Shown: positions 2,626-33,677 of the stretch, one piece after another
How positions within the stretch are numbered: the first letter of the stretch is position 1
How the letters are laid out: each line of letters begins with the position of its first letter
NCBI GenBank assembly: GCA_964404765.1
Contig: CAYOLL010000004.1
Location: 1 to 34,314 of the forward strand
Reading direction: 5' to 3'
Origin: an uncultured Gemmatimonadota bacterium
GTDB lineage: Bacteria > 4572-55
DNA: 34,314 nucleotides
The notes under the pieces: model-generated
What the model was told of the DNA's origin: nothing
Database searches by the model: none
The model's input: the letters and a program-made list of their open reading frames with translations, nothing else
Position numbers and translations under genes: made by a program

Positions 2626-3489
2626 TTAAAGCAGAAAAGAGTCGATAATCAGCGCAAAAAAAAGCCCGAGCAAATAAACAATAGAATAGCCGAACAACTG
2701 CCAATGCCGGGTCGGTGTGGGATTCTGCCAATCCCGATAGGTTTTGAAGATAAAAAACAGGCCGCACCCGACAGCAACCACCAGATAGAGCAAGCCCGCA
2801 GTCAGATAATAAAGCAGCAGGCTGACGACCACCGTCGCCACGGAATAAAGCCACATTTGGCGCAGAGTAGTTATGTCGCCCTTGATCAATGGCATCATCG
2901 GGTAGCCGACTTCGCGATAATCTTCTTTGTAATATAATGCCAGCGCCCAAAAATGGGGTGGCGTCCACAAAAATATAATAAGAAACAACAAAATTGCCGT
3001 CCAGCTCAATGAATTGGCCGCGGCAGCCCAGGCAATCACCGGACCCATGGCGCCGGCTGCTCCACCGATAACAATATTTTGCGGCGTCGTCGGTTTGAGC
3101 CATAAGGTATAAAAAAAGCTGTAAAACAAGATAGTTCCGACTGCCAACGCCGCGCTAAACCAGTTAAAAGCCATAGCAAAAATAAGTACGCCCGCTACAC
3201 CAATGCCAATCGAGAAAATCAGGGCTTCGTTCGGTAAAATACGCCCGGACGGCAGCGGTCGCTTTGTTCGTGTCCGGCTCATGCGCGCGTCCACGTTACG
3301 CTCAAAATATTGATTCATGGCATTGGCACAACCTCCGGTTAAATACAAGGCGAACAATGCGGCGAAAAACCGAGCCGGGTCGGCGAGCAGACTTTTTTCC
3401 AAAAATAAGGCCGTCATACCGGTTATCACTACCAGCAGCATAATGGACGGCTTGGTTAATTGGAAGCAGGCTTTAATTTTTTTCAACAT
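2626..3489 (-). CDS. ctaB: Protoheme IX farnesyltransferase (heme O synthase), UbiA family
   Basis: A polytopic membrane protein with CyoE/CtaB hallmarks: LTKPSI..LLVV, NQYFERNVDARMSRTRTKRPLPSGRI, and WTPPHFWALAL. Confidence 0.9.
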   Translation of the reverse strand: MLKKIKACFQLTKPSIMLLVVITGMTALFLEKSLLADPARFFAALFALYLTGGCANAMNQYFERNVDARMSRTRTKRPLPSGRILPNEALIFSIGIGVAGVLIFAMAFNWFSAALAVGTILFYSFFYTLWLKPTTPQNIVIGGAAGAMGPVIAWAAAANSLSWTAILLFLIIFLWTPPHFWALALYYKEDYREVGYPMMPLIKGDITTLRQMWLYSVATVVVSLLLYYLTAGLLYLVVAVGCGLFFIFKTYRDWQNPTPTRHWQLFGYSIVYLLGLFFALIIDSFLL

Positions 3490-3667: not shown

Positions 3668-4120
3668 TTATTTCGCTGTTTCCGGTCTAAGCATAGGCCC
3701 GTAGCCCAGGGGCAGACCGCCTAATTCCCGCACATCTTTAAGCGTGTAGCGCTCCGCCCAATCTTTAAAATGCTCCTTTAAGACCGCCCAAAAGCCATGT
3801 AACGGGCATGGCTCGTCCTGATTGCACAGTCCCCAGCCAAACATACAGACCGTAGAGTCTACTTCATAATCCACTGCGTTTAGAATATCAATAAAGCGTA
3901 TCTTGTCTAACGGTTGAGCAAAGGTAAATCCCCCGCCGTGACCTTTCTGCGACAATAAAATACCGCCCGTTACCAACCGCCGCATGATCTTAGACAAGTA
4001 GTGCGACGGAATTTCCGCAATTTTTGACAAATCTTGCGTACGATGCGATACATCGTCCGGTTGCGAGGCCATATAGGCTACTGCCCGCATTGCGTATTCA
4101 GCCGTTTGTGTCAACCGCAT
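3668..4120 (-). CDS. Rrf2-family transcriptional regulator (NsrR/IscR-like, probably Fe-S-binding)
   Basis: MRLTQTAEYAMRAVAYMA is the N-terminal wHTH typical of Rrf2. The three-Cys cluster CMFGWGLCNQDEPCPLH matches the [Fe-S] ligand region of NsrR/IscR. A strong GGAG RBS sits 8 nt before the ATG at 4120. The ORF-track start at 4150 is a TTG; the MRLT start is typical for the family. Confidence 0.85.
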   Translation of the reverse strand: MRLTQTAEYAMRAVAYMASQPDDVSHRTQDLSKIAEIPSHYLSKIMRRLVTGGILLSQKGHGGGFTFAQPLDKIRFIDILNAVDYEVDSTVCMFGWGLCNQDEPCPLHGFWAVLKEHFKDWAERYTLKDVRELGGLPLGYGPMLRPETAK

Positions 4121-4280
4121 ATTGACTCCTTCATTCATTGCCCTCTTCAATTTTCGGCTTGCAGCATGGTGTCACTTTGGACTCCGACATACCGGCATAA
4201 TGGCTTAACCGAAACCCACGTTTTTTGAAAAGCATTGGTATCTTCAATAAAAATATAAAATTTTTTTTAAAAGTCAACTT

Positions 4281-6098: not shown

Positions 6099-6623
6099 AT
6101 GAGTATTTACTCACCCGCGTCGGGCTGGTTTAAGGCGCCCGAAGGCGCCGAACGGCTGTGGATTGGCATCGCTTTAATTTGGTGCTTGATTATGTTTATC
6201 GCCATGCCTTATTGGCATTTTAAAGGGAAACAGAACAGTACCGGCGAGTCATATCGTGTTGATCCGAAAGCGTTTAATGAACGCATCGAAAAATATGTTC
6301 AGACGAATAAAGTTGGCGAAGAATTGGGCATTCCGGTCGTGGAAGCCGCGCCCGGCGGTGATGTTTATCTGCTCGGACAAATGTGGCGCTGGTATCCGAT
6401 TCTGAAGCTAAAAAAAGATCAGACCTATCGACTGCACATCTCGTCCATTGACTTGCAGCATGGCTTTTCGCTGATGCCAATGAACATGAATTTTCAAGTG
6501 CTGCCGGGTTATGACCATGTTTTGACCATCACGCCAACATCAACCGGCATCTTTCCGATTATTTGTAACGAGTTTTGCGGTATCGGTCATCACATGATGA
6601 CTGGCCGGATTATTGTAGAATAA
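6099..6623 (+). CDS. Heme-copper oxidase/NOR subunit II with cupredoxin domain and a complete CuA site
   Basis: An N-terminal TM is followed by a cupredoxin domain. The CuA ligand pattern is H(QHGFS)...C-N-E-F-C-G-I-G-H-H-M-M, i.e. C-x-E-x-C-G-x2-H-x2-M. The 174-aa size resembles ba3-type subunit II. An AGGAGG RBS precedes it. Confidence 0.85.
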   Translation: MSIYSPASGWFKAPEGAERLWIGIALIWCLIMFIAMPYWHFKGKQNSTGESYRVDPKAFNERIEKYVQTNKVGEELGIPVVEAAPGGDVYLLGQMWRWYPILKLKKDQTYRLHISSIDLQHGFSLMPMNMNFQVLPGYDHVLTITPTSTGIFPIICNEFCGIGHHMMTGRIIVE

Positions 6624-6722: not shown

Positions 6723-8435
6723 ATGGGAAATTTTTTACCAAATCAAATGCGTACGTGTGATACGACGCGGCTACCCGTTTGTCTGACGGCGCAGCTATTT
6801 ATCCGCGCTCATGCCGTATTTGCCGTTGTCTATTTACTGGTGGGCGCGATTGCCGCGCTACTATTGGCCTTGACGCGCTGGTCGGCGGTCCATCTGCTGC
6901 CTGCCGATTGGTACTATCGCATTTTGACTTTACACGGTATCAACATGCTGATTTTTTGGATGCTATTTATGGAAGTAGCGATTCTCTATTTTGCCAGCAC
7001 AACGCTGCTTAACTCACGCACTTTTTCCAAACCAATGGGTTGGGTCGGTTTTGTGCTGATGGTTGTAGGCTCGCTCATGACCGATTGGATGATTTTAACC
7101 GGCAAGGGCGATGTATTAATGACCTCATACGTGCCGCTCAAAGCGGATCCGATGTTCTATCTGGGCATCATTTTGGTAGCCGTCGGTGTCTTGCTGGGCA
7201 TTGTTAATTTTTTTGGAACACTCTATATCGCTAAACGGGATCATACTTATACCGGTTCGGTGCCATTAGTCACTTTTGGCGCATTGGCCGCGGCCATTAT
7301 CGGCGTGCTGACCATTTTGCATGGCGCGGCCATCTTGATCCCGACAATGCTCTGGTCAATGGGTTTGATGCCGGTCCCGGACGCGGGCGTTTATCGTCTG
7401 ATCTGGTGGGGACTGGGCCATGTTTCGCAGCAAGTAAATGTCTGTGCGATGGTTTCCGTGTGGTACTTTCTGGCCACGCTGACTGTCGGCGCGCGCCCGC
7501 TAAACGAAACCGTCTGTCGCACGGCTTTTATTCTCTATATTTTATTCATCAACTTAGCTTCGGCGCATCATTTATTGGTCGATCCCGGTGTTGGAGCTAC
7601 CTGGAAAATATGGAACACTTCCTACGCTATGTACCTGGCTGTATTAGCCTCGCTGATTCACGGCTTCACCGTGCCGGCATCGGTCGAAGTGGCCCAGCGC
7701 ATGAAAGGCTACACTCGCGGCATGTTCCAATGGCTGACTTCCGCGCCGTGGGGCGATCCGGGCTTTTCCAGCTTCTTCCTGTCGCTGACAATTTTTGGTT
7801 TTATTGGTGGTATTACCGGAGTGACGCTGGGCACTGAGCAAATTAATATCATTGCTCACAATACGTTGCGTATTCCCGGTCACTTCCATGCCACAGTGGT
7901 CGGCGGCTCAACGCTGGCTTTTATGGGTTTAGCCTACTATGTGGTTCCGCTGATTTTTCAGCGTGAGTTTTATTTAAAGGGCGTTGCTCGGGTGCAGCCG
8001 TACATTTTTGCCGCCGGTATTGTTATGCTGTCATTCGGGATGTCCTTTGCCGGTTCATACGGTGTGCCGCGCCGCCATTATGATGTTGATTTTACCGGGG
8101 CGAATATTCCGGCCGGTTTCGACTCTGCCGCACACTTTATGTTAGGGATTGTCGGTATTGGTGGAACTCTGGCTTTCATTGGGGCATTGATTTTTGTTCT
8201 GCTGGTGGTGGCGGCTGTCTTTTTTGGTAAATCCAATGTCGGTCAGCCCATGTCCGCCTGGCAATCTGCGGATAATCTGAAAATGAACGCCAACGTGCTG
8301 TCCCGGCCAATTGATGAGGCCATTGCGCATAAAGTTCCGGGTACTGTCACTTTAACGCTTGTCTTATTGGTATCTTTTGTGGTATACTATTTTGCTAACT
8401 GGAAAGCGTTGGCAGATGTCTGGTTTGTGCGGTAA
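6723..8435 (+). CDS. Heme-copper oxidase superfamily subunit I (B-family-like; putative NO reductase catalytic subunit)
   Basis: It has 12 or more TM helices with a helix-II His (LHGINMLIFWMLFMEVA), the helix-VI CuB His in WWGLGHVSQQVNV, the helix-VII HH in ASAHHLLVDPG, and the helix-X heme ligands in GHFHATVVGG. The 570-aa size is close to ba3 subunit I. Gln replaces the Tyr of the GHPxVY motif. An AGGAGG RBS precedes it. Confidence 0.9.
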   Translation: MGNFLPNQMRTCDTTRLPVCLTAQLFIRAHAVFAVVYLLVGAIAALLLALTRWSAVHLLPADWYYRILTLHGINMLIFWMLFMEVAILYFASTTLLNSRTFSKPMGWVGFVLMVVGSLMTDWMILTGKGDVLMTSYVPLKADPMFYLGIILVAVGVLLGIVNFFGTLYIAKRDHTYTGSVPLVTFGALAAAIIGVLTILHGAAILIPTMLWSMGLMPVPDAGVYRLIWWGLGHVSQQVNVCAMVSVWYFLATLTVGARPLNETVCRTAFILYILFINLASAHHLLVDPGVGATWKIWNTSYAMYLAVLASLIHGFTVPASVEVAQRMKGYTRGMFQWLTSAPWGDPGFSSFFLSLTIFGFIGGITGVTLGTEQINIIAHNTLRIPGHFHATVVGGSTLAFMGLAYYVVPLIFQREFYLKGVARVQPYIFAAGIVMLSFGMSFAGSYGVPRRHYDVDFTGANIPAGFDSAAHFMLGIVGIGGTLAFIGALIFVLLVVAAVFFGKSNVGQPMSAWQSADNLKMNANVLSRPIDEAIAHKVPGTVTLTLVLLVSFVVYYFANWKALADVWFVR

Positions 8436-8956: not shown

Positions 8957-9044
8957 TCTGTGAATTCGAGACTCGGTCAAAATTTTTTAATCAGTTTAGT
9001 GATAAATGGATATATTTTTCCTTTATCTGCAAAGCGAGGCTCCT

Positions 9045-9992
9045 ATGAAAATCATCGAAAATATACAGCAATTCCTGATTGGCTGGCGCTTTCCGGTGAT
9101 GATGGTGTCCATGCTGCTTTTTTTCAGCCTGGAGTTATTTATTGTCCTGTTGATTCCGGCTTCGAGCGGGGCGGCGGCACAGTTTGCCGAAGATTTTAAA
9201 ACCTGGTGTTTTGGCTATGACCCGGCTACGGGTAAACTGGAATGGGGTTATGTGATTATGTTTCTGATTCAGCCCTTGATGATGTGTGGCGTAATCATCA
9301 TGGTTTGGATCAAGCCGCTCAAGGAAGTCTGGCAAGATCGTCCGACTCAGACGGTGCCGTATCTGGTCAGTTCGGCTACGATTGTGCTGGCCCTGGGTGT
9401 AAGCCTGACGCTGATGGTTGGCGCGGATGCCCGCGCTGCCGATGAGCAATTGCCTTTTCCGGCTGAGGCGCTGCGCACGGAACTAAACCCGATCCCATTT
9501 TCGCTGATGAATCAGGATAGCGCCGTTGTGAGCCTGGAATCGTTAAAAGGCCGGGTGACGCTGATTACGGCAGTTTACGCCCGCTGTGGCTATACGTGCC
9601 CGATGATTTTGGCGCAAACGCGTCGGGTGATGAGCTCCCTGACGCCACAGGAATTGAAAGAGCTTTCGATTCTGGGCATCACGCTCGATCCGGAGCATGA
9701 CGATGTCGCCGTGCTGCGGGAAATGGCCGCCGGTCAACAAGTCAAGACGCCGCTGTTCCATTTTCTAACCGGCGAATCAGCCTATGTTAACCAAACCCTT
9801 GATATGTATGGTTTTGCCCGCAAGCGCAATCCGGAAACCGGGGTGATCGACCACGCCAATCTTTTTTTATTAATTGATCGGCAGGGCAAAATCGCTTATC
9901 GCTTTTCGATTGGCAAACGGCAGGAAGATTGGCTGGTTCACGCCATACGCATGTTGATTAAAGAAAAAAAGGGTTCGGGTGTCGCGGCATGA
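9045..9992 (+). CDS. SCO1/SenC-family copper chaperone with an N-terminal polytopic membrane extension
   Basis: The C-terminal thioredoxin-like domain carries YARCGYTCP (the CxxxC copper site) and a downstream DHANLFLLIDRQG (conserved His). The N-terminal 140 aa contains 3 to 4 hydrophobic helices. A GAGG RBS precedes it. Confidence 0.8.
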   Translation: MKIIENIQQFLIGWRFPVMMVSMLLFFSLELFIVLLIPASSGAAAQFAEDFKTWCFGYDPATGKLEWGYVIMFLIQPLMMCGVIIMVWIKPLKEVWQDRPTQTVPYLVSSATIVLALGVSLTLMVGADARAADEQLPFPAEALRTELNPIPFSLMNQDSAVVSLESLKGRVTLITAVYARCGYTCPMILAQTRRVMSSLTPQELKELSILGITLDPEHDDVAVLREMAAGQQVKTPLFHFLTGESAYVNQTLDMYGFARKRNPETGVIDHANLFLLIDRQGKIAYRFSIGKRQEDWLVHAIRMLIKEKKGSGVAA

Positions 9993-10053
9993 CCTGAAAA
10001 ACTCGTGACAGGCCACAAAGGCACGAAAACACTAAGTTTCACGAAGTTTGTTA

Positions 10054-12207
10054 ATGTTTTATGTCTTCAGCGCTTATGTTTGTGAACAATTCACCCGGAA
10101 AATTATGCGCCCACGCCCCATCATTACCCATGAGGATATACCACAACTAAATGCAACGCATGTGCGTGATGCCCGGTCCGAACCACCGGTGCGTGGCGAA
10201 GCTCTGCTGACCCAATTAGATATGCAGTTTACCCGGCTAAACCGATGGGTTAAGGCTGTCGTCCCTGATGCACTTAATCCGTTTACGCAGATGGGCGCCG
10301 TGGCGGATACGATGTTTATCGTTGCCATTATTAGTGGTATCTTGCTGTTGTTTTGGTATAAGGCCAGCGTGTTTCAGGCCTATGATTCGTTAGAAGCGAT
10401 GCGGCATAATTGGCCGGCGCAGTTAGTGCGCTCAATCCATCGTTATAGTTCGGACGGTTGTTTGCTCTTTGTCATTTTACATGCATTGCAAATTCTGGGA
10501 GCACGCAAGTTTGGCGGTGTGCGCTGGCTGGCCTGGGTTTCCGGTGTGGCGCTGGTCTGGCTGTTATGGGTAGATGGCTGGACGGGTTATTGGCTGGTTT
10601 GGGACGTGTCGGCGCAGCAAGTAGCGCTTGGCACCGCGAAATGGTTAGATGTGCTGCCGATTTTTGCCGACCCTTTATCACGTTCTTTTTTAACTGACGA
10701 CAGCGTCAATTCGTTATTCTTTTTTGTGGTGTTTTTTATCCACATGCTGCTGCCGCTGGTCATGGGTGTGGCGTTGTGGATTCACATTATGCGCTTAAAT
10801 GATTCGCATTTTCTGACCAATCGCAAGTTGACCGGCATTTTGCTTACGGCGCTGGTAATGGTTTCGCTTCTCTTTCCGGCTCTATCGGCTGAACAAGCGG
10901 CCATGCAAATCGCGCCACAATCTTTCAAGATGGATTGGTTTTATTTATTACCGCTGATTGTGACGGATCGTTTACATGGCGGTGGTTTGTGGTTAGTTAC
11001 CGTCATTTTTACGGTTGCTTTTTTTAGTGTGCCGTGGGCTATGGCCCGACAACGATCCGCGCCGGCAAAGGTCAATCCGGAACGCTGTCACGGCTGCACA
11101 CAGTGTTTTCAGGATTGTCCATTTAACGCGATTACGATGCGCCCGCGTGATGGTAAGCATCCGGTTGTATCCTATATTGATCCGGATAAGTGCGTGGGCT
11201 GCGGCGTGTGCGTCGGCTCGTGCGATCCCTGGGCAATTGAGTTTGATGCCCTGCGGCAGATGGATGTGCGCAAATGGATTCGTCAGCGGCTCAAGATCGA
11301 AACTGCTGATCCGCGTCACGTTGCTTTTGTTTGCGCCGATTCTGCCGGGGCGGATTTACAACTGAATGCCGCCGGGGAGTGCGCTGAATTGACTGGCTAT
11401 CGAATCGTGCCTGTGCCGTGTGTAAGCTGGCTGTTTGCGCCCATGATCGCGCAAGTATTGCGGGCCGGTGTGCCGGGGGTGATGGTTGTGGGTTGCGGAC
11501 CAAACGAAATTTGTCGTAAAGGCAACCGTTGGACGGCCGAACGTCTGGCTGGAACCCGCGAGCCTTATTTACTGATGACACCTTCTGCGGCCGCAGATCA
11601 TGATGAAAGTGATCTGGTTGGGCGGATTCGATATATACGCTACGATCGATCGCAGAAGGCGGAATTTATTGCCGACGCGCAGGATTTTCGGGCCGGAAAA
11701 GTGACTGCGCCAAAAGTGTCCGCCCGGCGTTGGGCAAACGTGGTGGTTATTTTTCTTATCTTAGCTGGGGCGATCATTACATTGAGTCGCATGCCCTATC
11801 GTCCGCCACAGTTGGAAACCGCGGAATTAGTGATCTCTTTCAAACATCCGGGGCAGTTGGTCGAGCAGGTTACGGCTTCCGCTGCCGATCAACAAAATAT
11901 ATTGCCGCACATGCGTGGCGGCGCCTCTAAAAAGAGGTTACGTACGGCGGTTCGTTTGCAGGTATTCGTCGATGGCGCAGAAAAAGTCAATCAAACACTG
12001 GCTCCACGCGGTCTATTTAGCGATGGCGCTAGCATTGCCATTGAAAAAATACCGCTATTGGAAGGTCGCCATCTGGTTAAAGTGCGAGTAGGCGATTCGG
12101 CTAATCCGGATGAATGGCAATTTTCTGATTCGCGCGAGCTGGATTTTAAAATAGCAACGCGACGTGTAGTTTTGTTCAGCAAATCGGCGGGATTTAAATG
12201 GTATTGA
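10054..12207 (+). CDS. Multi-domain membrane electron-transfer protein: di-heme cytochrome b (N-terminal), 2x[4Fe-4S] ferredoxin, an MvhD/FlpD-like domain, a TM helix and a C-terminal about 150-aa domain
   Basis: Two H-x13-H pairs in TM helices ([16 protein letters not shown] and [16 protein letters not shown]) match the cytochrome b heme bL/bH ligands, alongside an R..H..A...F motif. [12 protein letters not shown] and [12 protein letters not shown] are two 4Fe-4S motifs. [10 protein letters not shown] ... [37 protein letters not shown] resembles the methyl-viologen-reducing hydrogenase delta subunit domain. The start is uncertain: the ATG at 10054 and the ATG at 10105 both lack a clear SD, and the TTG at 10048 is also possible. 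Confidence 0.7.
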
Positions 12208-12359
12208 TCAAATAGATTTGCACAAGTTTCAAATTTTAGCGCACTTGCGTGCTAATAATGGACATGTAAGTCTATTATTATATTTTGTTTGCTACTTTAA
12301 TTCACAACGCGAGTTTGTGAGCTCGCACAATATCAATCTAAGGGAAGGAGTACGGGTTA

Positions 12360-13846
12360 TGGGAACAAAAAAGGGGTTGTTTTTCGGAACAGCGATGGTG
12401 ATTTTGACGCTTTCGTTATCGCTTATTTACTCATGTAATGAGCAGCAATCGGCACAATCAAAGTCAAGTGGGAGTAGCAGTAAAGCAGACAATGGGCTCG
12501 TTAAGTTGGAGCCGGTGGCCGTACAAGGCGAGGAAGTGGCAGTCTTAACCGATCCACCGATGGTGCCGCCACCGATTACGCGCACCAATGCGACAAAAGT
12601 GATTGTCAATCTGGAGGTTATTGAAAAAACAATGCGGATTGCCGACGGAGTGATGTATACTTTTTGGACATTCGGCGGGACGGTGCCTGGCAAGTTTATC
12701 CGCGTGCGTGAAGGCGATTTTGTAGAGTTTCACCTGAAAAATCATCCGGAAAATAAGTTGCCGCATAATATTGACTTACATGCGGTTACGGGACCTGGCG
12801 GCGGCGCAGCCTCCTCATTTACTGCCCCGGGGCACGAGTCGGTCTTTTCGTTTACGGCGATGAACCGCGGCTTGTATGTCTATCACTGCGCGACGGCGCC
12901 GGTAGGTATGCATGTGGCCAACGGCATGTATGGCTTGATCTATGTTCAGCCAAAGGAAGGCTTGCCGCCGGTTGACAAAGAATACTATGTTTTCCAAAGC
13001 GATTTTTACACCAAAGGCGCGTATGGCGCAGCCGGTCTGCAACCCTTCAGCATGGAGAAAGCTTTGCAGGAACTGCCGGATTATGTGGTTTTTAACGGCT
13101 CCGTCGGTTCGACAACCGGCGATAAGGCGATGACCGCCAAAGTCGGCGATAAAGTGCGCCTTTTTGTTGGCAATGGCGGCCCGAATATGGTCTCTTCCTT
13201 CCACGTTATTGGCGAAATTTTTGATAATGTTTATGAAGAAGGCGGCGATCGGGTTAATCATAACGTGCAGACAACAATGGTTCCGGCGGGCGGCTCGACG
13301 ATCACCGAATTTGTGTGTGAAGTGCCGGGCACGTTTATCCTGGTTGACCATTCCATTTTCCGGGCGTTTAACAAAGGCGCTATCGCGATGCTAAAAGTCG
13401 AAGGCGCTGAAAATAAAACGATCTACTCCGGTAAGCAGGATGATCGTATCTATCAAGGTGAAGGTTCTGCGGTGCAGGAAATGCCGGGGGGAGCTGTTGT
13501 CGAAGCGCCCGCAGCCAAGACCAAAGAGGAGCGTATGGAGCGCGGACAAAATGTGTATAAATCCATTTGCATTGCCTGCCATCAGGCCGAAGGTCAGGGT
13601 ATGCCGGGCGCATTCCCGCCATTGGCCGGTTCGGACTTCCTGAATGCTGACAAGAACCGCGCCATCAAGACGGTAATGAACGGCTTGGAAGGTAAGGTGA
13701 CGGTTAACGGCGCGGATTACAACGGCATCATGCCCAAGCTGAACCTGACAGATGAAGATATTGCCAATGTTGTTACCTATGTGCTGAATAGCTGGGGCAA
13801 TAGCGGCGGCGAGATTACGCGAGATGATGTGAAGAAACTGCGGTAG
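12360..13846 (+). CDS. nirK: Copper-containing nitrite reductase (NirK) with C-terminal mono-heme cytochrome c domain, lipoprotein
   Basis: The lipobox is LSLSLIYSC. The type-1/type-2 Cu ligand motifs are [13 protein letters not shown] and [18 protein letters not shown]. The two-cupredoxin length fits NirK. The C-terminal [19 protein letters not shown] is a CxxCH heme c site. A GGAAGGAG RBS precedes it. The ORF-track start at 12218 is a TTG far upstream. Confidence 0.9.
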
Positions 13847-14141: not shown

Positions 14142-17100
14142 ATGCAAGACCTTGAAAGTCTTAAAAGCAAGGCTGCTTCAGAGCTGACGCAAGCGCTGCC
14201 TTTGGTGGATAAATCTGTTGAAAAAAGCTCACCCAAAAGATTGGACGCAACGGCCTATAGCGCTATGCCGCCGGCGATTGCCGAAATGTGCCAGCGTTAT
14301 GGTCGCAAGAAAAATGCGGCGACTCGTCTGGAAGTTTTGCTGCAATGTTTTGACGCCCTACAGATTCATGTTACCTGCTTGCTGTTGGCTGATTATTTGA
14401 ATAGCGCCGGTGTTGATACCGACTTAAACGATTTACTAAGTGACTATCTGGCCGAGTCTGAAATCAGCGCTATTTTTTTCTATATACTGCTGGAACAATA
14501 CCGTGCCAGCAATAGTGGCCATTTCTTTGCCCGTCAGAAAAATCAACTAATGCCCGCCGTGCCATTTGAAGATTGGGAAATTGCTTATAAAAACATCAAT
14601 TTTTCGAATGCGCAACAATCCCTTGATCTTTTATTTCCCCGCATCAGCAAACAATTTGAGCTGTTTCGATTTTTAAACCAGTATCCTTTGTTTGTCGTGC
14701 GCGCCTATGATGAAGAGCGGGATGCCTATCAGGTGGATTGGTTACTGCAAAACAAAAGCGACTGGATTTCTTCAAAAAAAGATGAGCCGCTTATTCTCAA
14801 CCGACTTTATCTGGCAGACGAGGCGGGTTCCCTGTCGTTGCACCCGTTATTGATTACAGCCAAGTGTCCGAAGTGCCAGCAGGAGCACATTTTTTATTTT
14901 CAAAAAATTAATCGTGAAGCGCTTGTCTATTTCAATTTTGAAGATTTTCATACGCTCTCCATAACGGATGTCTCCGTTATGAGTGAACTGGGGAATACGC
15001 TGGCTCAGAAGAAAGCATACAGTCTGGCAGTACAATGCTTTGAAGTTATTTTGCGTATTCGACCCAATGACAAAACCGCCCGTTCGGGGTTGTTTGCGAC
15101 CCATAATCTGTATGGCGTGCAGCTTTTTGAGGCCAAAAAATTTGAGGAGTCCGGTGAGCAGTTTCGTTTAGCCTTAGTCTTGCGTGCCGATGTCAGCCAG
15201 GTTTATTTTAACCTGGCTACGGCGTATCGGAAGAGCAAAAATTTTAGCGGCGCACTGGAAACAATTGATCGACTATTGGAACGGCAGCCGAGTCTTACGA
15301 AAGCCTTGGAAGCCAAAGCGCAGATTCTGGAAGAGTACGGTCAGCATGACGAAGCCTTAAAAATCTATGAGACCGCCTTAAAATCCGATCTGGCATACAA
15401 ACGTATTTTTACTTCCTGGCGACGGTTAAGCGACCAAATTGCTATGCCGCAAGCTACGCCGGTTAAAAAAGACGACAAAAAAGCCGATAAAAAAACCGAC
15501 AAGCCGGAAAAGAAGGAAGATAAAAAATCGGCATTAGAAATTTTGACCCGTGATGTAATGGAATACGTTAAAAAAGAAGCCGTTGAGCCGATTTTTGGAC
15601 GGGAAAAAGAATTGGGCGAGATTATGGAAATTCTGACCTGCCATAATAAAAACAACGTCATACTGGTGGGTGAGTCCGGTGTTGGCAAATCGGCAATTGT
15701 CGAGGAGTTGGCCCGTCGGGTGATCCGCGAGGATGTGCCGCAGCGCCTCAAGGGTAAGCGCTTGCTGGAGCTTAGCACAACCACGCTGGTGGCCGGAACA
15801 AAGTTTCGCGGCGAATTGGAAGAGCGAATTCTAAGTTTAGTGGATGAAATTAAGAGTGATGGCAGTATTATTCTTTACATTGACGAGATATCCAGTATCG
15901 TTCACGGCGGTTCCTATCGCGGCAGTACTGTGGAAATTTCCGGTGTTTTAAAGCCCGCCCTGGCGCGTGGCGAAATCCAGTGCATCGGCACGGCGACACT
16001 CGACGAATATCGTCGCAATATCGAAAAAGATCAGGCACTGGAACGGCGCTTTCAAATTGTGCATGTTGACGAGCCAAGTGTTGATGAAACATTGTCGGTG
16101 CTAAAAATTACGGTTAACAAGTTTGAGACTTTCTACGGTGTGCATTTTGATGATGAAGCCATGCGTTTAGCAGCAGAGTTTGCCAAAAATTTTTTGCGGG
16201 ATCGGGCCTTGCCGGATAAAGCCCTGGACTTGCTTGATCGCGCCGGGGCAAGTGTGGCCTATGCCGCACAAAACGACCCAAATATTCCGCCCTATGTGAC
16301 GCCGGACGATATGATTCGGATTGTATCCAAGATCAGCGGTGTGCCGGTTAATAAAATCGACCAATCCAATGCTGAGCGCTACCAGAACATGGAGTCTATT
16401 TTGCGTCGCAAAATTGTCGGTCAGGATGCGGCAATTGATCAGGTTTGCCGTGTTATCCGTACGAATCGCATGAAGTTTAAGTTGAATCCCAGCCGTCCGG
16501 AGGGTGTTCTGCTTTTTCTTGGCCCTACCGGGGTAGGCAAGACCGAGCTGGCCAGAATGCTGGCTGAGTTTCTGTTTGGCAGTGTTGATGACATGATTCG
16601 GATTGATATGTCTGAGTTTTCTGATCGCATTGCCACGACCAAGTTGGTTGGCGCTGCGCCGGGTTATGTGGGTTACAATGATCCTAATCAATTGACGGAT
16701 CGGGTGCGAAACCACCCTTATACGCTTGTTTTATTAGATGAAATTGAAAAAGCTGATTCGCAGGTTCTCAATATTTTTCTGCAGGTTTTTGACGCCGGTC
16801 GCCTGACGGATTCCAAAGGCCGCGATGTGGCTTTTAATCACACAACCGTTGTGATGACATCCAATATTGGTTCCGAGTTGTTTTTTAAAACGACTATCGG
16901 TTATGGGGATAATCGCAACGGCGGTTCTTCCGGGAAGGCTGTGGCGGTTTCCACGCAGCAACTGATGCGGCAGCTTCAGAGCCGGTTGACCCCGGAATTT
17001 TTGGGTCGGATCGATGAAATTGTTGTCTTTAATCCGCTGATGCTGGACGACGCCAAAAAAATTGTTGAATTGCGGCTTAAGGCGATTCATGACCAATTGC

Positions 17101-17318
17101 ACTTGGAGGAAAAAACGCTTTTTCTGTATGATTCCGCGCTTGAATTTTTGGTGGAAGTCGGTTTTGATTCGGAATTTGGCGCGCGCAATTTGGACAAGAC
17201 AATTCGTCAATATTTGTTAGACCCGTTGGCGCGGAAAAAGCTGCAGCCGGATTGGATGTCCGTCCACGAAATCAGCGTCGCGCGGCAAGGGCAGAATTTA
17301 CAAATTATTATGAAGTGA
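14142..17318 (+). CDS. ClpA/ClpC-like double AAA+ unfoldase with a novel about 470-aa N-terminal TPR-containing domain and a Lys/Asp-rich linker
   Basis: D1 carries GESGVGKSAIVEELARRV, Walker B ILYIDEISSIV and TKFRGELEERI. D2 carries VGQDAAIDQV, LFLGPTGVGKTELARMLAEFLF, IRIDMSEFSD and LVLLDEIEKADSQVLNIFLQVFDAGRLTDSKGRDV. It has no long M-domain, so it is ClpA-like rather than ClpB-like. A possible ClpP-docking IGY tripeptide lies in D2. The N-terminal region has TPR-like repeats and a KKDDKKADKKTDKPEKKEDKK linker. An AAGGA RBS precedes it. Confidence 0.8.
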   Translation: MQDLESLKSKAASELTQALPLVDKSVEKSSPKRLDATAYSAMPPAIAEMCQRYGRKKNAATRLEVLLQCFDALQIHVTCLLLADYLNSAGVDTDLNDLLSDYLAESEISAIFFYILLEQYRASNSGHFFARQKNQLMPAVPFEDWEIAYKNINFSNAQQSLDLLFPRISKQFELFRFLNQYPLFVVRAYDEERDAYQVDWLLQNKSDWISSKKDEPLILNRLYLADEAGSLSLHPLLITAKCPKCQQEHIFYFQKINREALVYFNFEDFHTLSITDVSVMSELGNTLAQKKAYSLAVQCFEVILRIRPNDKTARSGLFATHNLYGVQLFEAKKFEESGEQFRLALVLRADVSQVYFNLATAYRKSKNFSGALETIDRLLERQPSLTKALEAKAQILEEYGQHDEALKIYETALKSDLAYKRIFTSWRRLSDQIAMPQATPVKKDDKKADKKTDKPEKKEDKKSALEILTRDVMEYVKKEAVEPIFGREKELGEIMEILTCHNKNNVILVGESGVGKSAIVEELARRVIREDVPQRLKGKRLLELSTTTLVAGTKFRGELEERILSLVDEIKSDGSIILYIDEISSIVHGGSYRGSTVEISGVLKPALARGEIQCIGTATLDEYRRNIEKDQALERRFQIVHVDEPSVDETLSVLKITVNKFETFYGVHFDDEAMRLAAEFAKNFLRDRALPDKALDLLDRAGASVAYAAQNDPNIPPYVTPDDMIRIVSKISGVPVNKIDQSNAERYQNMESILRRKIVGQDAAIDQVCRVIRTNRMKFKLNPSRPEGVLLFLGPTGVGKTELARMLAEFLFGSVDDMIRIDMSEFSDRIATTKLVGAAPGYVGYNDPNQLTDRVRNHPYTLVLLDEIEKADSQVLNIFLQVFDAGRLTDSKGRDVAFNHTTVVMTSNIGSELFFKTTIGYGDNRNGGSSGKAVAVSTQQLMRQLQSRLTPEFLGRIDEIVVFNPLMLDDAKKIVELRLKAIHDQLHLEEKTLFLYDSALEFLVEVGFDSEFGARNLDKTIRQYLLDPLARKKLQPDWMSVHEISVARQGQNLQIIMK

Positions 17319-21405: not shown

Positions 21406-23394
21406 TTAACGCAACAACACAGTTCGCGCAGTCATCAAGCCGGCGTTTGTTTGCAAGCTCCAAAAATAAATACCATTAGCCAGTTGACGATTATCCTGTG
21501 ACTGTCCATTCCAGGACAGATTATGCTCGCCGGGTGAAAGCAGTTCTTGGTCAAGAATCGTGCGCACCATGCGACCGGCGCTGTCATAAATCCGCACGGT
21601 TGCCGTTGAAGCCGCCGGCAAGTAAAAAGCCAGCGTGGTTTGATCGGAAAACGGATTCGGATGGCTTGCTTGCAAACTCGGGCGGGCGGCCGCATTTTCA
21701 ACAAATACATCGTGCTCGGGTGATTGCCAATTGCGTCCATCGGCAAAGAGCGCTTCTATAAAATAGCGATAGGCAAAGCCGGATGACGGGTGATCTTCAT
21801 ACATGACGGTTGTTGGCGCTAAAATCGGTGATATGCCAGAATAATCTGCCGCGGGACCAATGCCTTGCCGATGAACACGAATGCCGGTAATATGGGTCAA
21901 ATCCGACAACTGCCAGGCAAGCTTGACGCCCGGACCATTCATCTGCGCCTGAAAAGAGAGCAATGTTAAAGCGGCTACGCGCTGATAGTTTATCGCCGCC
22001 ACGACATCAATGATACCCCAGCCGAGCAGCGTATCCGGGTGGGTGGCCTGGCTGGCGGTCATCATCAGCGCTTCGCGGATTTGCATCATCGTCCAATCGG
22101 GATGGGCTTGCAAAAGCTGGGCGGCGCAGCCGGCCACTAACGGCGACGACAAAGACGTTCCGCTAAGATTATAATAGCCAATTGCACTGCGGGCGCGGGC
22201 GCAGCGCGTACTAACGCCACGAGCCATAACCTCCGGTTTAAGCCGGCCGTCGGCGGTTACCCCGTCAGAGTTGAAACTCGCCCTGGCGCCGGTTGCATCG
22301 ACCGCTCCAACGGTTAAGATGCTGTCGGCATCGGCCGGCGCGCCCAGAAACGGGTGGGTCGGGTCGCCGCCGCTATTACCCAGCGAGACGCAGATGACGA
22401 CGCCAAGACCGGCGGCAATATCGGCGGCGCGGGTGATCGGCGCAGTATCGCCGTCCATTTGCGCATAAGTATACCAGTCCAGGTAGCTCAACGAGCTATT
22501 GGCCACATCTGTGCCCAGGCCTTCCGCCCATTCAATGGCCGCAATCCAGTAATCTTCTTCAACCGGTGTTTCGTTGGGTAAGTCCTCGGTTTTGGCCAGA
22601 ATGAAGTGGGCTTTATAGGCCGGACCGATGAGCTTTCCGTCGGCATAACCACCCAAAGTTGACCAGGTCGCCGTGCCATGATCGTGTTGACCGCTCACAT
22701 CGTTGGCCTCATTTTGCACATTGCCGTCATTGAAAATAAAATCATGCTGCGCCAGTAAACGCCCTTCGCTGAGAATGGCGGCAAAGGATTCGTGGGTCAG
22801 ATTGTAGCCCGTATCAAGCATCGTAACAATCACCCCAGCGCCGTTATAACCAAGCCGATGGGCATTGACGGCATTGATCTGATTCAGTTGGTCAAATGAC
22901 AGGCCGTAGTTTAAATCTGCCGGCGTGGCCATGACTTCAGCAGGTGTTTCCACTAATTCCGGCCGTTTGAAGCCCAATACCGGCTGAATGCGGCTGACAA
23001 AGGGCAGAGCGGCGATTTGAGCCAATTGCTCCCGGGTTGTTACCAGGCTGATGGCATTTAACCACTTACTGGTTTGGACTATCCTTGCGCCGGTTCCAGC
23101 CAACCGTGCCGAATAATCCGCCGCCACCGGCAGGTCAAGCTGCGAAACACCCGGCTTTTGACCGCGTTTATGCCGTCGTTCAATCGCGCGATCAGTCAGA
23201 CCTAATTCGGCTAACGACATTGTGGCAGCGCTCGCTTGGGCATTTTCTGTGCTCTTGTCCGTTAAAAAAACCCAGACTTTCAGCTCTGACTGACCCGTCA
23301 GACGTTCATAAACCCGGCTGTCGATTTTTGACGCCATGCCGGATGAAACCCAGCCCAGAATGGCAATAAGAACGGCTGCTACTGTAATTCGCAT
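21406..23394 (-). CDS. Subtilisin-family (S8) serine peptidase with C-terminal T9SS sorting domain
   Basis: It has a signal peptide. The catalytic triad motifs are VIVTMLDTGYN (Asp), HDHGTATWS (His) and LSGTSLSSPLVAGCAA (Ser). The C-terminal NPFSDQTTLAFYLP...VRIYDSAGRMVRTI...WNGQ..ANGIYFWSL... is a T9SS type-A sorting domain. Confidence 0.85.
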   Translation of the reverse strand: MRITVAAVLIAILGWVSSGMASKIDSRVYERLTGQSELKVWVFLTDKSTENAQASAATMSLAELGLTDRAIERRHKRGQKPGVSQLDLPVAADYSARLAGTGARIVQTSKWLNAISLVTTREQLAQIAALPFVSRIQPVLGFKRPELVETPAEVMATPADLNYGLSFDQLNQINAVNAHRLGYNGAGVIVTMLDTGYNLTHESFAAILSEGRLLAQHDFIFNDGNVQNEANDVSGQHDHGTATWSTLGGYADGKLIGPAYKAHFILAKTEDLPNETPVEEDYWIAAIEWAEGLGTDVANSSLSYLDWYTYAQMDGDTAPITRAADIAAGLGVVICVSLGNSGGDPTHPFLGAPADADSILTVGAVDATGARASFNSDGVTADGRLKPEVMARGVSTRCARARSAIGYYNLSGTSLSSPLVAGCAAQLLQAHPDWTMMQIREALMMTASQATHPDTLLGWGIIDVVAAINYQRVAALTLLSFQAQMNGPGVKLAWQLSDLTHITGIRVHRQGIGPAADYSGISPILAPTTVMYEDHPSSGFAYRYFIEALFADGRNWQSPEHDVFVENAAARPSLQASHPNPFSDQTTLAFYLPAASTATVRIYDSAGRMVRTILDQELLSPGEHNLSWNGQSQDNRQLANGIYFWSLQTNAGLMTARTVLLR

Positions 23395-27330: not shown

Positions 27331-27987
27331 TTATGACAAAACATCTTCTACTTTGATTGAAAATCCTTCCAACAATTTCGATGGCACTGCCGGCTTGCCT
27401 GGACCGACCTGGCTTGCAAACAACTCATAAGCGCCGTCGGTCAGTGCATAAACTTCTATCGCCTGCCAAGCCGGATCGATAATCCAATATTCCTTGACGC
27501 CGAATTTCTGATACAAAGCCATCTTCGTGTTGCGATCTCGCTGGATGGATGACGGGGAAATAATTTCGACGATCAAATCCGGCGCACCGACAATGCCGTG
27601 CGGGGCAATAATCGAACGATTGGCTTCGGCGATAAACACAATGTCCGGCTGGATCGTGTTTTCGTCGGATAAGATTACGTCAATGGGCGCGTGAAACACT
27701 TGTCCCGATTTATTCATCCGCACTAATTGGGCGAGACGCAATAATACATTTAACGAGGCGTTTTGATGATCCGTTGATGGCGCAGACATAGCAATTAACT
27801 CCCCATTTATGATTTCATAACGCTTGTCATCCGGCAGGGTCAAATAGTCGGTGTACGTCCATCTTTTGGTGGGGACGAACGGCTTTGCCGGCGCAACAAC
27901 CGCAGGCTTATTGAGATATGGCGCGGGCGCTTTCTTTTTCCGTGCTTTTGCCGTCGGGGAAACGGCGGCTTGTTCCAAAATTGCCAT
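27331..27987 (-). CDS. Uma2-family (DUF820) putative PD-(D/E)xK endonuclease with Lys/Pro/Ala-rich N-terminal tail (copy A)
   Basis: YEIINGELIAMSAPSTDHQ...HAPIDVILSDENTIQPDIVFIAEAN...GAPDLIVEIISPSS...KMALYQKFGVKEYWIIDP...IEVYAL matches the Uma2 family. The N-terminal AKARKKKAPAPYLNKPAVVAPAKPFVPTKR tail is unusual. A GGAGG RBS precedes it. Confidence 0.8.
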   Translation of the reverse strand: MAILEQAAVSPTAKARKKKAPAPYLNKPAVVAPAKPFVPTKRWTYTDYLTLPDDKRYEIINGELIAMSAPSTDHQNASLNVLLRLAQLVRMNKSGQVFHAPIDVILSDENTIQPDIVFIAEANRSIIAPHGIVGAPDLIVEIISPSSIQRDRNTKMALYQKFGVKEYWIIDPAWQAIEVYALTDGAYELFASQVGPGKPAVPSKLLEGFSIKVEDVLS

Positions 27988-27996
27988 AACAACCTC

Positions 27997-28656
27997 CTAC
28001 ACCGTCAGAACATCTTCTACTTTGACTGAGAAACCGTCCAACAACTTCGACGGCACTGCCGGCTTGCCGGCACCGATCGCGCTTGCAAATAATGTATAAA
28101 CGCCGTCTGTCAACGCATAAATCTCGACGACCTGCCAGGCCGGATCGATGATCCAGTATTCCTTGACGCCAAATTTTTCGTACAAAGCCATTTTCGTGCG
28201 GTGATCGCGTTGAATCGATGATGGGGAAATAATTTCGACGATCAAATCCGGCGCGCCGACAATGCCATGCGGGGCAATAATCGACCGATTGGCCTCGGCA
28301 ATAAACACAATGTCCGGCTGCACGGTATTTTCGTCAGACAAAATTACGTCAGTTGGCGCGAGAAAACTTTCTCCGACAGGCTGATTCGCTAAATACTTAT
28401 CCATTACGCGGTGTAACTTTCCCAGACACCGTTGATGATCCGTTGATGGCGCAGCCATAGTCATTAACTCCCCGTTTATAATTTCATAACGCTTGTCATC
28501 CGGCAAAGTCAAATAGTCGGTATACGTCCATCTTTTGGTGGGGACGAACGGCTTTACCGGCGCAACAACCGCAGGCTTATTGAGATATGGCGCGGGCGCT
28601 TTCTTTTTCCGTGCTTTTGCCGTCGGGGAAACGGCGGCTTGTTCCAAAATTGCCAT
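27997..28656 (-). CDS. Uma2-family (DUF820) putative endonuclease with the same basic N-terminal tail (copy B, tandem paralog)
   Basis: It is nearly identical to copy A at the N and C termini (first 32 aa identical) and divergent in the central region (HQRCLGKLHRVMDKYLANQPVGESF versus HQNASLNVLLRLAQLVRMNKSGQVF). Its GGAGG RBS is identical. The two form a roughly 660-bp tandem duplication. Confidence 0.8.
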   Translation of the reverse strand: MAILEQAAVSPTAKARKKKAPAPYLNKPAVVAPVKPFVPTKRWTYTDYLTLPDDKRYEIINGELMTMAAPSTDHQRCLGKLHRVMDKYLANQPVGESFLAPTDVILSDENTVQPDIVFIAEANRSIIAPHGIVGAPDLIVEIISPSSIQRDHRTKMALYEKFGVKEYWIIDPAWQVVEIYALTDGVYTLFASAIGAGKPAVPSKLLDGFSVKVEDVLTV

Positions 28657-32275: not shown

Positions 32276-33610
32276 TTAGCGCATCAATACCATACGTCGG
32301 GTTTCGATAGGTTTGCCATTAACCGACATTGCGTAGAAGTAGATGCCGCTGCCGGTTGGATCGCCCGCGTCATCCCGACCGTCCCAGGTTAGGCTATGCC
32401 GACCTTCCGCCAATGAATTGTCAACCAACGTGCGAATCCATTGACCGGCGGCATTATAAATGCGGATAACAACTTTTTGCGATTTTGGTAATGTCCAGGA
32501 AATGTTCGTCGATTGGGTAAAAGGGTTGGGATAGTTTTGGGTCAGTCGGGATGGCGAAGCCTGATTTTCCGGATCATCGGTTTCAATATTCAGCGGGTCG
32601 GCATAACGGAAGATGCGCCCGTTTTTGCAGCCAATCCAGAGCTGATCCGGGCCAAACACGGCAAAACCGGTCGCTTCCGCCGGCACAGTAAAGCGGCTTT
32701 GCCACGAGCGGCCCAAATCGCCGCTGAAATAAAATACAGTGCTGCCGTCAGTGACATGATACGCCCAACCGTTCCGGGCATTGTGAAATTGCCAGGAGCC
32801 GGGCAGAATAGCCGTGTCTGAAGTAATTTGAGTGGTGTCCCACGAAGCGCCGCCGTCTTGCGTTGTCAACAGCCAGATATTCGCTGCGCGTAAGAGGCCG
32901 GTTTGCTCGTCAAAAATATGGGCGTATTGGAAGGGTTCGAGCAATTTGTCAAGAAAATAACTGGCCATGAAAGTGATCCCCTTTGAGCTCCAAAGCCTAT
33001 CATTATTAAAGCGTGGGTCATTCGCATCCCAATATCGCTCGATTAACCAAATTAAATCCGGGGAACTGAAATCCCAGAAAGGAACATTCAAACCGGTATC
33101 AATGCCCCAATGATCTAAACCAAGCGAATAGTTCCAAGTTTTTCCTCCATCTCGTGTTTGGAGCAGGAACTCTATGCCACCGGGTTGACCGCCGCCGGCT
33201 CGTCCAATGCCAAACCAGCCGTTTTGCGCATCAAAAAATCGCGGCGGTTCTGCAAGATATTCTGTATAAACCTGGCTTGTATCCAGCAGATAGGAAGCAG
33301 TAGTCCAGGTTAAACCGTGGTCGGATGTGTAATTAAAGTAAACATTTGGACGGACATAATGCCAGATCCAGGCTTCGCTATCGGAAATTGCGTCAAAATC
33401 TCCTATCGCCAACGGCATCCAAGAAATGCCGGAATCGACGGTGTGATAGGTCTGATCGCTGCAAATCCAAACCGTTTGGGTCGAAAAGCCCTCAATTTTG
33501 GCAATATGGGCGGTGGTCGGCGATTGGATTTCCACCAGCGTGGGAACAGCCAATAAACAGGCCGGAAATTGGACAAACAGGCTGATGACAAGCATAAGCA
33601 AATTCTTCAT
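32276..33610 (-). CDS. Secreted BNR/Asp-box repeat protein with C-terminal T9SS sorting domain
   Basis: The signal peptide MKNLLMLVISLFVQFPACLLA is followed by four S/T-x-D-x-G-x-T/S-W Asp-box-like motifs (SDHGLTW, TRDGGKTW, TQDGGASW, SGDLGRSW). The C-terminal YPNPFTQSTNISW...VVIRIYNAAGQWIRTL...WDGRDDAGDPTGSGIYFYAM is a T9SS sorting domain. The ORF-track ATG at 33724 would overlap the upstream gene and lacks a signal peptide. Confidence 0.75.
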   Translation of the reverse strand: MKNLLMLVISLFVQFPACLLAVPTLVEIQSPTTAHIAKIEGFSTQTVWICSDQTYHTVDSGISWMPLAIGDFDAISDSEAWIWHYVRPNVYFNYTSDHGLTWTTASYLLDTSQVYTEYLAEPPRFFDAQNGWFGIGRAGGGQPGGIEFLLQTRDGGKTWNYSLGLDHWGIDTGLNVPFWDFSSPDLIWLIERYWDANDPRFNNDRLWSSKGITFMASYFLDKLLEPFQYAHIFDEQTGLLRAANIWLLTTQDGGASWDTTQITSDTAILPGSWQFHNARNGWAYHVTDGSTVFYFSGDLGRSWQSRFTVPAEATGFAVFGPDQLWIGCKNGRIFRYADPLNIETDDPENQASPSRLTQNYPNPFTQSTNISWTLPKSQKVVIRIYNAAGQWIRTLVDNSLAEGRHSLTWDGRDDAGDPTGSGIYFYAMSVNGKPIETRRMVLMR

Positions 33611-33677
33611 AAAAGCTCTTTCACTCCAAGATAGACCGACAAATATTCTATTCCTCCAAAACTCCACCACTCCGGCC

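Follow-up and report, generated by a model that had tools for sequence, protein, structure and literature searches.

A Rieske-less cytochrome b-iron-sulfur fusion protein as a candidate electron-transfer companion of eNOR

Cytochromes b of the kind described here were set apart by Kao and Hunte in 2014 (Genome Biol Evol), who found cytochrome b combined with 4Fe-4S and MvhD domains in a "PDWF-FeS" clade that was named for its Qo motif and whose gene cluster lacks a Rieske protein (PMC4122944). Few genomes were listed in that study, and neither function nor gene context was given; proteins of Turneriella and Magnetospirillum belong to the clade, the fusion being reported for Magnetospirillum magneticum AMB-1 (PMC4122944). 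In this study, we examine a relative of these proteins that is encoded in a stretch of 34,314 nucleotides from an uncultured Gemmatimonadota bacterium (assembly GCA_964404765.1, contig CAYOLL010000004.1; hereafter the window), where its gene (hereafter the target) lies in the operon of eNOR, a nitric oxide (NO) reductase that belongs among heme-copper oxidoreductases (HCOs). We propose, with a probability of roughly 0.45, that the target protein serves as a Rieske-less, complex-III-like module that oxidises quinol on behalf of eNOR.

The enzyme itself has been purified from Rhodothermus marinus, where it reduces NO with N,N,N',N'-tetramethyl-p-phenylenediamine (TMPD)/ascorbate; the main text of that report names no physiological donor (PMC11214002). 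A preprint of May 2026 on Ferrigenium straubiae describes a common operon in which eNOR II, eNOR I, heme o synthase and sco1 are joined by an "eNOR scaffold protein of unknown function", and, besides these, two extra genes called "rather unusual", one for a cytochrome b+[Fe-S]+FAD+NADH protein and the other for a cytochrome b+[Fe-S] protein; proteomics recovered the proteins, and the authors proposed a supercomplex in which NO reduction would be coupled to that of NAD+ (10.64898/2026.01.22.701106). Compared by description, the Ferrigenium proteins share with our locus the encoding of cytochrome b/Fe-S fusions together with eNOR, and one rearranged locus in our sample (L087, described below) has a comparable arrangement. 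They differ in that what is "rather unusual" there is the rule in the eNOR clade examined here, and in that the clade of the window has neither an NAD(H)-binding domain nor a neighbouring gene for one.

The target occupies an uninterrupted single frame at 10048..12207 (+) in which alternative upstream starts exist (TTG 10048 and ATG 10054, the latter giving a protein of 717 aa). A public protein of 700 aa (P0001) that is 100% identical to the target begins at Met18 of the 717-aa form, that is, at window position 10105, and residue numbers below refer to the 700-aa form unless the 717-aa form is named. A word-indexed search returned at least 647 homologues, and residue statistics were taken from the best 120, all of which have the same architecture and are 636-784 aa long. 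AlphaFold2, run with an alignment on the whole chain, gave a predicted local distance difference test (pLDDT) score of 92.8 and a predicted template modelling (pTM) score of 0.89, and the packing between domains is fixed in this confident single-chain model. The domains that an earlier reading of the DNA by sequence alone (the sequence-only reading) had listed are all present, and in the order given there: Pfam, a PDB profile search and AlphaFold agree on them, with Cytochrome_B, Fer4 and FlpD each matched by Pfam.

The N-terminal part has the fold of b6- and bc1-type cytochromes b. Pfam Cytochrome_B (PF00033) matches residues 68-249 in the 717-aa numbering with E 3.9e-17 and 63.2 bits, the cut-off being 27.2. 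A family profile built from 71 homologues and searched against the PDB recovers cytochrome b6 chains (E 6.6e-29) as well as bc1 cytochrome b (E about 1e-13), and the best 50 Foldseek matches in the PDB are all b6 or bc1 cytochromes b; the alignments to long cytochromes b run to 277-365 columns, and a span of up to 365 columns exceeds the four-helix core. Helix B supplies the heme ligands His112/His126 and helix D the ligands His213/His227 (His129/His143 and His230/His244 in the 717-aa numbering), and the four are invariant across the 120 homologues. The sequence-only reading had recognised two H-x13-H pairs and put them in consecutive helices. The spacing of 13 residues and the placement within helices (AlphaFold helices 103-132 and 203-229) are both borne out, but the pairs sit in helices B and D.

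Elements of the periplasmic side are retained as well. An invariant 10-residue motif in the cd loop aligns with GYSLPWDQ of cytochrome b6 in the PDB profile alignment, and the M-D-W-F motif of the ef loop is taken here, from the motif itself, the fold and the published clade (PMC4122944), as the equivalent of the PEWY/PDWF Qo motif. Its Asp277 is present in 120/120 homologues and its Trp in 75/120, and several Pro, Ala and Met residues of the ef loop are invariant. After helix F the chain is back in the cytoplasm, and the Fe-S domains begin directly after that helix. On the opposite side of the membrane the protein departs from its relatives. No Cys for heme cn is found, the b6 segment FYCLGG (YCLGG) being aligned to QMGA in the target profile with Gln at the Cys position, and beyond the second ligand in helix D the homologues conserve no His of the Qi type, position 235 being variable; because both are missing, the classical n-side quinone site looks replaced or lost.

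In summary of the comparison with b6f and bc1 cytochromes b, the target shares the four-helix di-heme bundle, in which helices B and D provide the His ligands, as well as the cd-loop motif and helices E-F, and it has a putative Qo-type motif at the expected place, but it lacks a Rieske protein, a cytochrome c1/f partner, the heme-cn Cys and the conserved Qi His, and it has six cytochrome-b-type helices only, with the Fe-S domains fused where helix G would come. A six-frame scan of the window gave no Rieske motif, and no open reading frame (ORF) of the operon has a Rieske Pfam match. Nor did Rieske or c-type partner subunits emerge when the conserved neighbours of 80 related genome loci were clustered, which gave only eNOR-operon genes, NirK, CtaB and Rrf2. 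Judged by its sequence, the target is a member of the PDWF-FeS clade, whose published description it matches in the combination of cytochrome b with 4Fe-4S/MvhD, in the x-D-W-F motif with an invariant Asp and in the lack of a Rieske gene in the cluster. It differs from that clade in the first motif residue, which is Met or Ile in the target family and not Pro, and its C-terminal transmembrane (TM) helix and beta-sandwich and its linkage to eNOR are absent from the 2014 description (PMC4122944).

The cytoplasmic module resembles one end of HdrA2. Two Fer4 motifs are matched by Pfam at residues 338-390 (717-aa numbering; E 5e-11), with several Fer4 families matching, and all eight Cys of the two motifs are invariant in the 120 homologues. 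The closest solved relatives of this domain include the FwdF polyferredoxin and the C-terminal ferredoxin domain of HdrA, which the family profile aligns at HdrA 575-650 with E 1.2e-15. Pfam FlpD (PF02662) follows at residues 423-501 (717-aa numbering; E 5e-10, 39.9 bits against a cut-off of 22.3), and an NCBIfam match covers both domains, pairing target residues 319-482 with HdrA2 570-728, its ferredoxin+MvhD end, at E 1.5e-19. When the MvhD-like segment is compared with the PDB, MvhD chains are the sole matches, and these are weak (E 0.14-0.6).

The MvhD-like domain proposed from the sequence is thus confirmed in its identity, and its ligand set is atypical. Cys410, Cys439 and Cys464 are invariant in the 120 homologues, and an invariant Ser413 stands at the position of the second Cys in the CxxC of MvhD. 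Other Cys residues vary (Cys426 in 72/120, Cys470 in 40/120 and Cys468 in 28/120), and 27/120 homologues have no candidate fourth Cys at all. The target carries both Cys426 and Cys470, so that with five Cys its MvhD-like domain could bind a [2Fe-2S] cluster; the family as a whole does not conserve the fourth Cys that this protein has. The sequence-only reading had also pointed out that such domains normally dock to HdrA-type flavoproteins, an expectation that found no support at this locus. No HdrA-type partner is encoded in the window or in 168 related loci, and an HdrA-type flavoprotein or hydrogenase is neither present in the window nor conserved in the related loci; instead, a domain like the C-terminal ferredoxin of HdrA is fused within the same chain. 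In common with HdrA2/HdrA + MvhD (PDB 5ODC), the target has a 2x[4Fe-4S] ferredoxin domain that runs on without a break into an MvhD-like domain. It differs in lacking the FAD-binding HdrA core, HdrBC and hydrogenase, in being anchored in the membrane, and in its invariant Ser in place of the second CxxC Cys and its last Cys, which is not conserved in the family.

The Fe-S domains are in the cytoplasm, since six helices precede them, positive residues flank the cytoplasmic loops and no export (Tat) signal is present, and the last TM helix places the C-terminal domain outside. A Cys pair in the C-terminal domain of Myxococcota-type orthologues fits an oxidising compartment. The final TM helix was found as the sequence-only reading had it, and the domain beyond it is of ~139 aa and not about 150 aa; this beta-sandwich has no Pfam family match. 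Two short-form members of ~500 aa (L083 and L088) lack the last TM helix and the periplasmic domain, and in both the next gene encodes the missing part (L083:3463-3963, 166 aa; L088:6260-6784, 174 aa) with the HMR motif and a Cys pair kept. The periplasmic cap is therefore a separable subunit.

The strongest tie between the target and NO reduction lies in its gene neighbourhood. The proteins encoded beside the target in the window were searched by tblastn against the 80 related genome loci. An SCO-like gene is directly upstream of the target in 79 of these, and the same loci contain HCO subunit I (73), the CuA subunit (64), the 476-aa first gene of the cluster (58), heme o synthase (27, often directly downstream), Rrf2 (17) and NirK (12). 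In 73/74 informative genome loci the target comes after the series (HCO-like paralog)-CuA subunit-HCO subunit I-SCO. Seven loci lack subunit I, six of which end at the contig end, leaving L031 alone with 10 kb upstream and no subunit I. Within these neighbourhoods the Gln signature of subunit I, explained below, is kept in 69/69 orthologous loci; the CuA motif is complete in 64/64, and the CxxxC of SCO is present in 78.

The reverse comparison started from eNOR. An eNOR I profile yielded 80 metagenome loci, 42 of which were informative in that they extend at least 2.5 kb downstream, and the target is present in 40 of these 42. In the most distant eNORs sampled (55-59% identity), the target may lie upstream on the other strand. 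The link is kept at ~30% identity in two rearranged denitrification islands. One (L081) reads CRP/FNR, target homologue, CtaA, cupredoxin, NirS, SCO, CtaB and COX1. The other (L087) reads NirK, eNOR II, eNOR I, target paralog, NuoF-like gene, second paralog, HCO-like paralog, CtaB and SCO, and in its segment L087:3617-9121 target paralogs of 704 and 706 aa flank the NuoF-like gene, which encodes an FMN/NADH module (Complex1_51K, SLBB, NADH_4Fe-4S), with overlapping start and stop codons. In a further locus (L085), a ferredoxin gene follows an archaeal member of the family. These data lead to the conclusion that the branch to which the target belongs is a dedicated, near-obligatory companion of one eNOR clade, and they strongly back the functional tie to a NO reductase chain that the sequence-only reading had suggested. 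The linkage spans Rhodothermales, Myxococcota, Verrucomicrobiota, Planctomycetota, Acidobacteriota, Spirochaetota and Methylomirabilota. As a separate observation, L087 also has a Rieske/cytochrome b pair nearby, on the other strand.

The HCO next to the target is identified as eNOR by its subunit I, in which Gln237 stands at the site of the cross-linked Tyr, with no loss among the three CuB-type His or the two heme ligands. The literature diagnoses eNOR by a Gln in this place (PMC8756737, with reference to Hemp & Gennis 2008), and the same criterion is given with the purified enzyme (PMC11214002). An assignment as sNOR, with the target as the "orf1" of the norSY-senC-orf1 cluster of ammonia oxidisers, was considered and dropped, as the residue at the Tyr site is Gln and not Asn. 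In sNOR/bNOR that residue is Asn, and the fourth gene in Bacillus encodes a 190-aa protein with six TM helices (PMC3475470); no paper describing orf1 was found. An assignment as gNOR is ruled out by the presence of all three CuB-type His and the full CuA motif. The locations of the genes and domains discussed here are collected in Table 1.

Table 1. Positions of the target, its domains and the genes around it in the window.
Feature	Position	Strand	Details
Heme o synthase CtaB	2626..3489	-	NF003349 E 1.5e-91
Rrf2-family regulator, NsrR-like, divergent	3668..4150	-	Pfam Rrf2 E 1.5e-26
HCO subunit I paralog, first gene of conserved cluster, 476 aa	4348..5778	+	BLASTP against eNOR I E 4e-17, 25% identity/456 aa
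eNOR subunit II (cupredoxin)	6099..6623	+	Complete CuA motif H121...C156-x3-C160-x3-H164-x2-M167
eNOR subunit I	6723..8435	+	GH233-V-S-Q-Q237, HH282/283, H387/H389
Probable Tat-exported lipoprotein HiPIP, 140 aa	8471..8893	+	Weak Pfam HIPIP match, E 0.0039, below cut-off
SCO1/SenC-like copper chaperone	9006..9992	+	Directly upstream of target
Target gene, cytochrome b / 2x[4Fe-4S] / MvhD-like / TM / beta-sandwich	10105..12207	+	700 aa, start per public gene call
Cytochrome b6-type four-helix bundle, helices A-D	10255..10800	+	PF00033, PDB profile, Foldseek
Helices E + F with periplasmic ef-loop motif M-D-W-F	10822..11043	+	AlphaFold helices 240-256, 278-289, 292-313
Cytoplasmic 2x[4Fe-4S] ferredoxin domain	11065..11226	+	C328-C331-C334-C338-P, C363-C366-C369-C373-D
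MvhD/FlpD-like domain	11320..11556	+	PF02662 above cut-off
Seventh TM helix, residues 542-561, cytoplasm to periplasm	11728..11787	+	Hydropathy, AlphaFold helix
Periplasmic beta-sandwich, ~139 aa	11788..12204	+	Invariant His602-Met603-Arg604, near-invariant His656
NirK with C-terminal cytochrome c domain	12218..13846	+	TIGR02376 E 2e-106; Pfam Cytochrom_C; directly downstream of target

Several of the neighbouring genes have features of their own. The subunit I paralog that heads the cluster keeps the His ligands of the low-spin and high-spin hemes (H62, H352 and H354) and one CuB-type His (GGGH218) and has lost the HH pair. It has no Pfam or NCBIfam family match, orthologues occur in L087 and L088 in addition to the 58/80 loci counted above, and its probable counterpart, likened by description, is the "eNOR scaffold protein of unknown function" in the F. 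straubiae preprint. The SCO-like protein carries ~140 N-terminal residues with three predicted TM helices, not the usual single anchor, a form that is conserved with the operon.

Possible electron carriers are encoded in the window as well, so that the sequence-only reading was mistaken in stating that the cluster has no c-type donor. NirK carries a class I cytochrome c domain (CIACH at 13568) and has an N-terminal lipoprotein-like signal. The probable HiPIP, which lies between eNOR I and SCO, starts with a twin-arginine-like signal, carries a lipobox Cys and shows a HiPIP-like motif of four Cys towards its C-terminus; it is an insertion specific to the window, as 0/80 related loci have a homologue there. 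The listed NirK start, TTG 12218, is probably too far upstream, and Met48 (about 12359) is more likely. Downstream of ctaB, the ORF at 607-2493 encodes a soluble protein with no family matches that appears unrelated.

We favour quinol oxidation for eNOR because of the conserved Qo-side elements, the b6/bc1 fold, the two-way synteny with eNOR, the NsrR-like regulator and NirK in the window, and the NuoF-like and ferredoxin partners in other branches of the family. The cofactor-binding residues, as read from the sequence, define a linear chain that starts at a Qo-type pocket on the periplasmic side, passes two b hemes and reaches two [4Fe-4S] clusters and the MvhD-like site in the cytoplasm. (Mena)quinol would be oxidised at the Qo-like pocket, capped by the protein's own TM-anchored beta-sandwich, with protons released outside. 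Reducing power would pass to CuA of eNOR via periplasmic carriers, for which the HiPIP or the cytochrome c domain of NirK may serve here, and the remaining electron would cross the membrane by way of the b hemes to reach the Fe-S module. This module would in turn hand the electron to a cytoplasmic acceptor (ferredoxin or NAD(P)+) or back to quinone. Such a scheme would be a bc1-type bifurcation with Fe-S clusters in place of the Qi site.

A more far-reaching version, which we consider unlikely, would couple denitrification to reverse electron transport within one supercomplex of eNOR and the cytochrome b-FeS protein. Here the very high potential of NO reduction by eNOR would pull one (mena)quinol electron outward and so drive the second via bL and bH into the ferredoxin/MvhD-like clusters in opposition to the membrane potential, yielding a low-potential reductant (ferredoxin or NAD(P)H); the beta-sandwich, with its His-Met-Arg motif, would take over the docking and proton-acceptor roles of the Rieske head.

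A number of points weigh against the quinol-oxidising proposal. The scheme needs a first periplasmic acceptor to stand in for the Rieske cluster, and a gene for the cytoplasmic acceptor was not found near the target in the clade of the window, the NuoF-like gene occurring in 1/168 loci and the ferredoxin gene in one locus. Remote members L083, L085 and L086 have no HCO within the available sequence, which implies that the family is broader than the eNOR-linked clade. An alignment of helices E-F to an approximate spinach PetD sequence places MDWF on PEWY, but its score of 38 does not rise significantly above the 32.8 +/- 6.4 of shuffles. Since three Cys only are invariant in the MvhD-like domain, the cluster that it holds is uncertain across the family. 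The R. marinus enzyme, whose two heme sites are both reported to hold a modified heme A, b heme not being described, is active without a partner of this type (PMC11214002), so that any complex of eNOR with the target is not tight and is not needed for catalysis in vitro. Finally, a literature search found no experimental study of any family member.

The same cofactor chain can be read in the opposite direction, from the cytoplasm to the periplasmic side. As an outward conduit, the protein would be fed by a low-potential donor in the cytoplasm (ferredoxin, or NAD(P)H via a partner encoded elsewhere), and electrons would pass through the MvhD-like and [4Fe-4S] clusters to bH and bL and on to periplasmic carriers or CuA of eNOR, bypassing the quinone pool. 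Such a role is unlikely in our estimate. It would make sense of the HdrA2-like ferredoxin+MvhD module, which is a typical electron entry module, of the NuoF-like and ferredoxin genes that adjoin distant members, and of the lack of a Rieske-type acceptor for quinol oxidation at a bc1-like Qo site. The cd loop and Asp277 are, however, strongly conserved and would be needless for a pure wire; outward electron flow would dissipate the membrane potential, which is wasteful in a respiratory chain; and the clade of the window does not encode a donor-binding partner.

The position of the target directly after an SCO-like gene in 79/80 loci, often with heme o synthase next, could also point to maturation. 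The protein would then supply reductant for eNOR assembly, either as a transmembrane metalloreductase, comparable to cytochrome b561/STEAP or MsrQ, that serves the CxxxC/Cu site of SCO or the metal of the active site, or as a donor to heme O/heme A synthesis. The activity of purified eNOR without the target protein is compatible with a helper role, as are the heme A in both of its sites and the CtaA carried in many eNOR operons (PMC11214002); CtaA adjoins the distant homologue in L081. A 676-aa protein (P0152) joins an SCO1 domain with cytochrome b and Fer4 in one chain, but this may be either a true fusion or a read-through gene call, and the order relative to SCO is lost in L087 and L081. 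We consider a maturation role quite unlikely, as a 700-aa protein with five cofactors and a conserved Qo-type pocket is elaborate for a chaperone helper, and cytochrome b6-type proteins are not known to act in metal or thiol reduction.

In QmoC, HdrE/HdrD, DsrMK and NarI/NarH, a membrane cytochrome b that holds two hemes and has its quinol site on the periplasmic side is wired to cytoplasmic [4Fe-4S] clusters. These proteins have the NarI-type cytochrome b fold, which is unrelated to that of the target, and defined cytoplasmic catalytic partners; their likeness to the target is one of working logic, not of membership. By analogy with this architecture, both quinol electrons could pass via the b hemes to the cytoplasmic Fe-S module and an acceptor in a NarI/HdrE/QmoC-type redox loop, with no direct feeding of eNOR and an operon link that reflects co-regulation only. 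The distant members with no HCO nearby would fit such a loop. It is nevertheless improbable, given the very tight two-way linkage within the eNOR clade, the absence of a gene for a cytoplasmic terminal reductase from all 168 loci, and the low-potential ferredoxin-type clusters, to which flow would run uphill against the membrane potential with no obvious acceptor to drive it. An artefact, in which two or more genes were joined through a frameshift or an assembly error, can be dismissed along with the frameshift concern of the sequence-only reading: nothing was found in its favour, the frame is continuous, more than 100 full-length homologues of the same size (~700 aa) occur in many phyla, and the whole-chain model is confident.

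The family is large. An exhaustive search of 50%-identity cluster representatives returned 3726 at E <= 1e-3 and 396 at E <= 1e-30, and a relative is encoded in at least 185 GTDB species genomes from many phyla; a Leptospiraceae orthologue (L062) has 39% identity to the target over the full length. With these numbers, and with the combination already published in 2014 (PMC4122944), the rarity that the sequence-only reading had ascribed to this set of domains does not stand. The architecture was known; the present analysis adds numbers for its linkage to eNOR, taken in both directions and across phyla, and further shows that the periplasmic cap can be a separate subunit and that the MvhD-like domain has an atypical set of ligands. 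Databases name members of the family "hydrogenase iron-sulfur subunit" or "cytochrome b N-terminal domain-containing protein", and the former label is a systematic mis-annotation.

Other parts of the window hold genes of separate interest. Right after the denitrification cluster, 14142-17318 (+) encodes a protein of 1058 aa with an unusual architecture of N-terminal TPR, STAND/AAA_16-like NTPase and ClpB-type AAA_2 + D2-small domains. Two secreted proteins with Por_Secre_tail (type IX secretion system, T9SS) sorting domains are encoded at 21406-23394 and 32276-33724 (-), a feature that hints at an origin in the Bacteroidota/FCB group. Tandem Uma2 family genes (PF05685, putative restriction endonuclease) at 27331-27987 and 27997-28656 (-) adjoin a gene for a TPR protein of 1285 aa and an ORF of 726 aa that matches no family. 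Inside this 726-aa ORF (28683-30863, -), the region 29001-30000 is a composition outlier (GC 0.568, AT skew -0.42, GC skew -0.14) with several long overlapping ORFs on the opposite strand.

eNOR is reportedly among the most widespread nitric oxide reductases and a source of N2O, and it may conserve energy. The target protein is a concrete candidate for what connects this enzyme to the quinone pool or the cytoplasm, a link that has been missing. If the maturation role were true, the family would constitute a new class of assembly reductase for heme-copper enzymes; if bifurcation were true, it would represent a new coupling of denitrification to the production of low-potential reductant.

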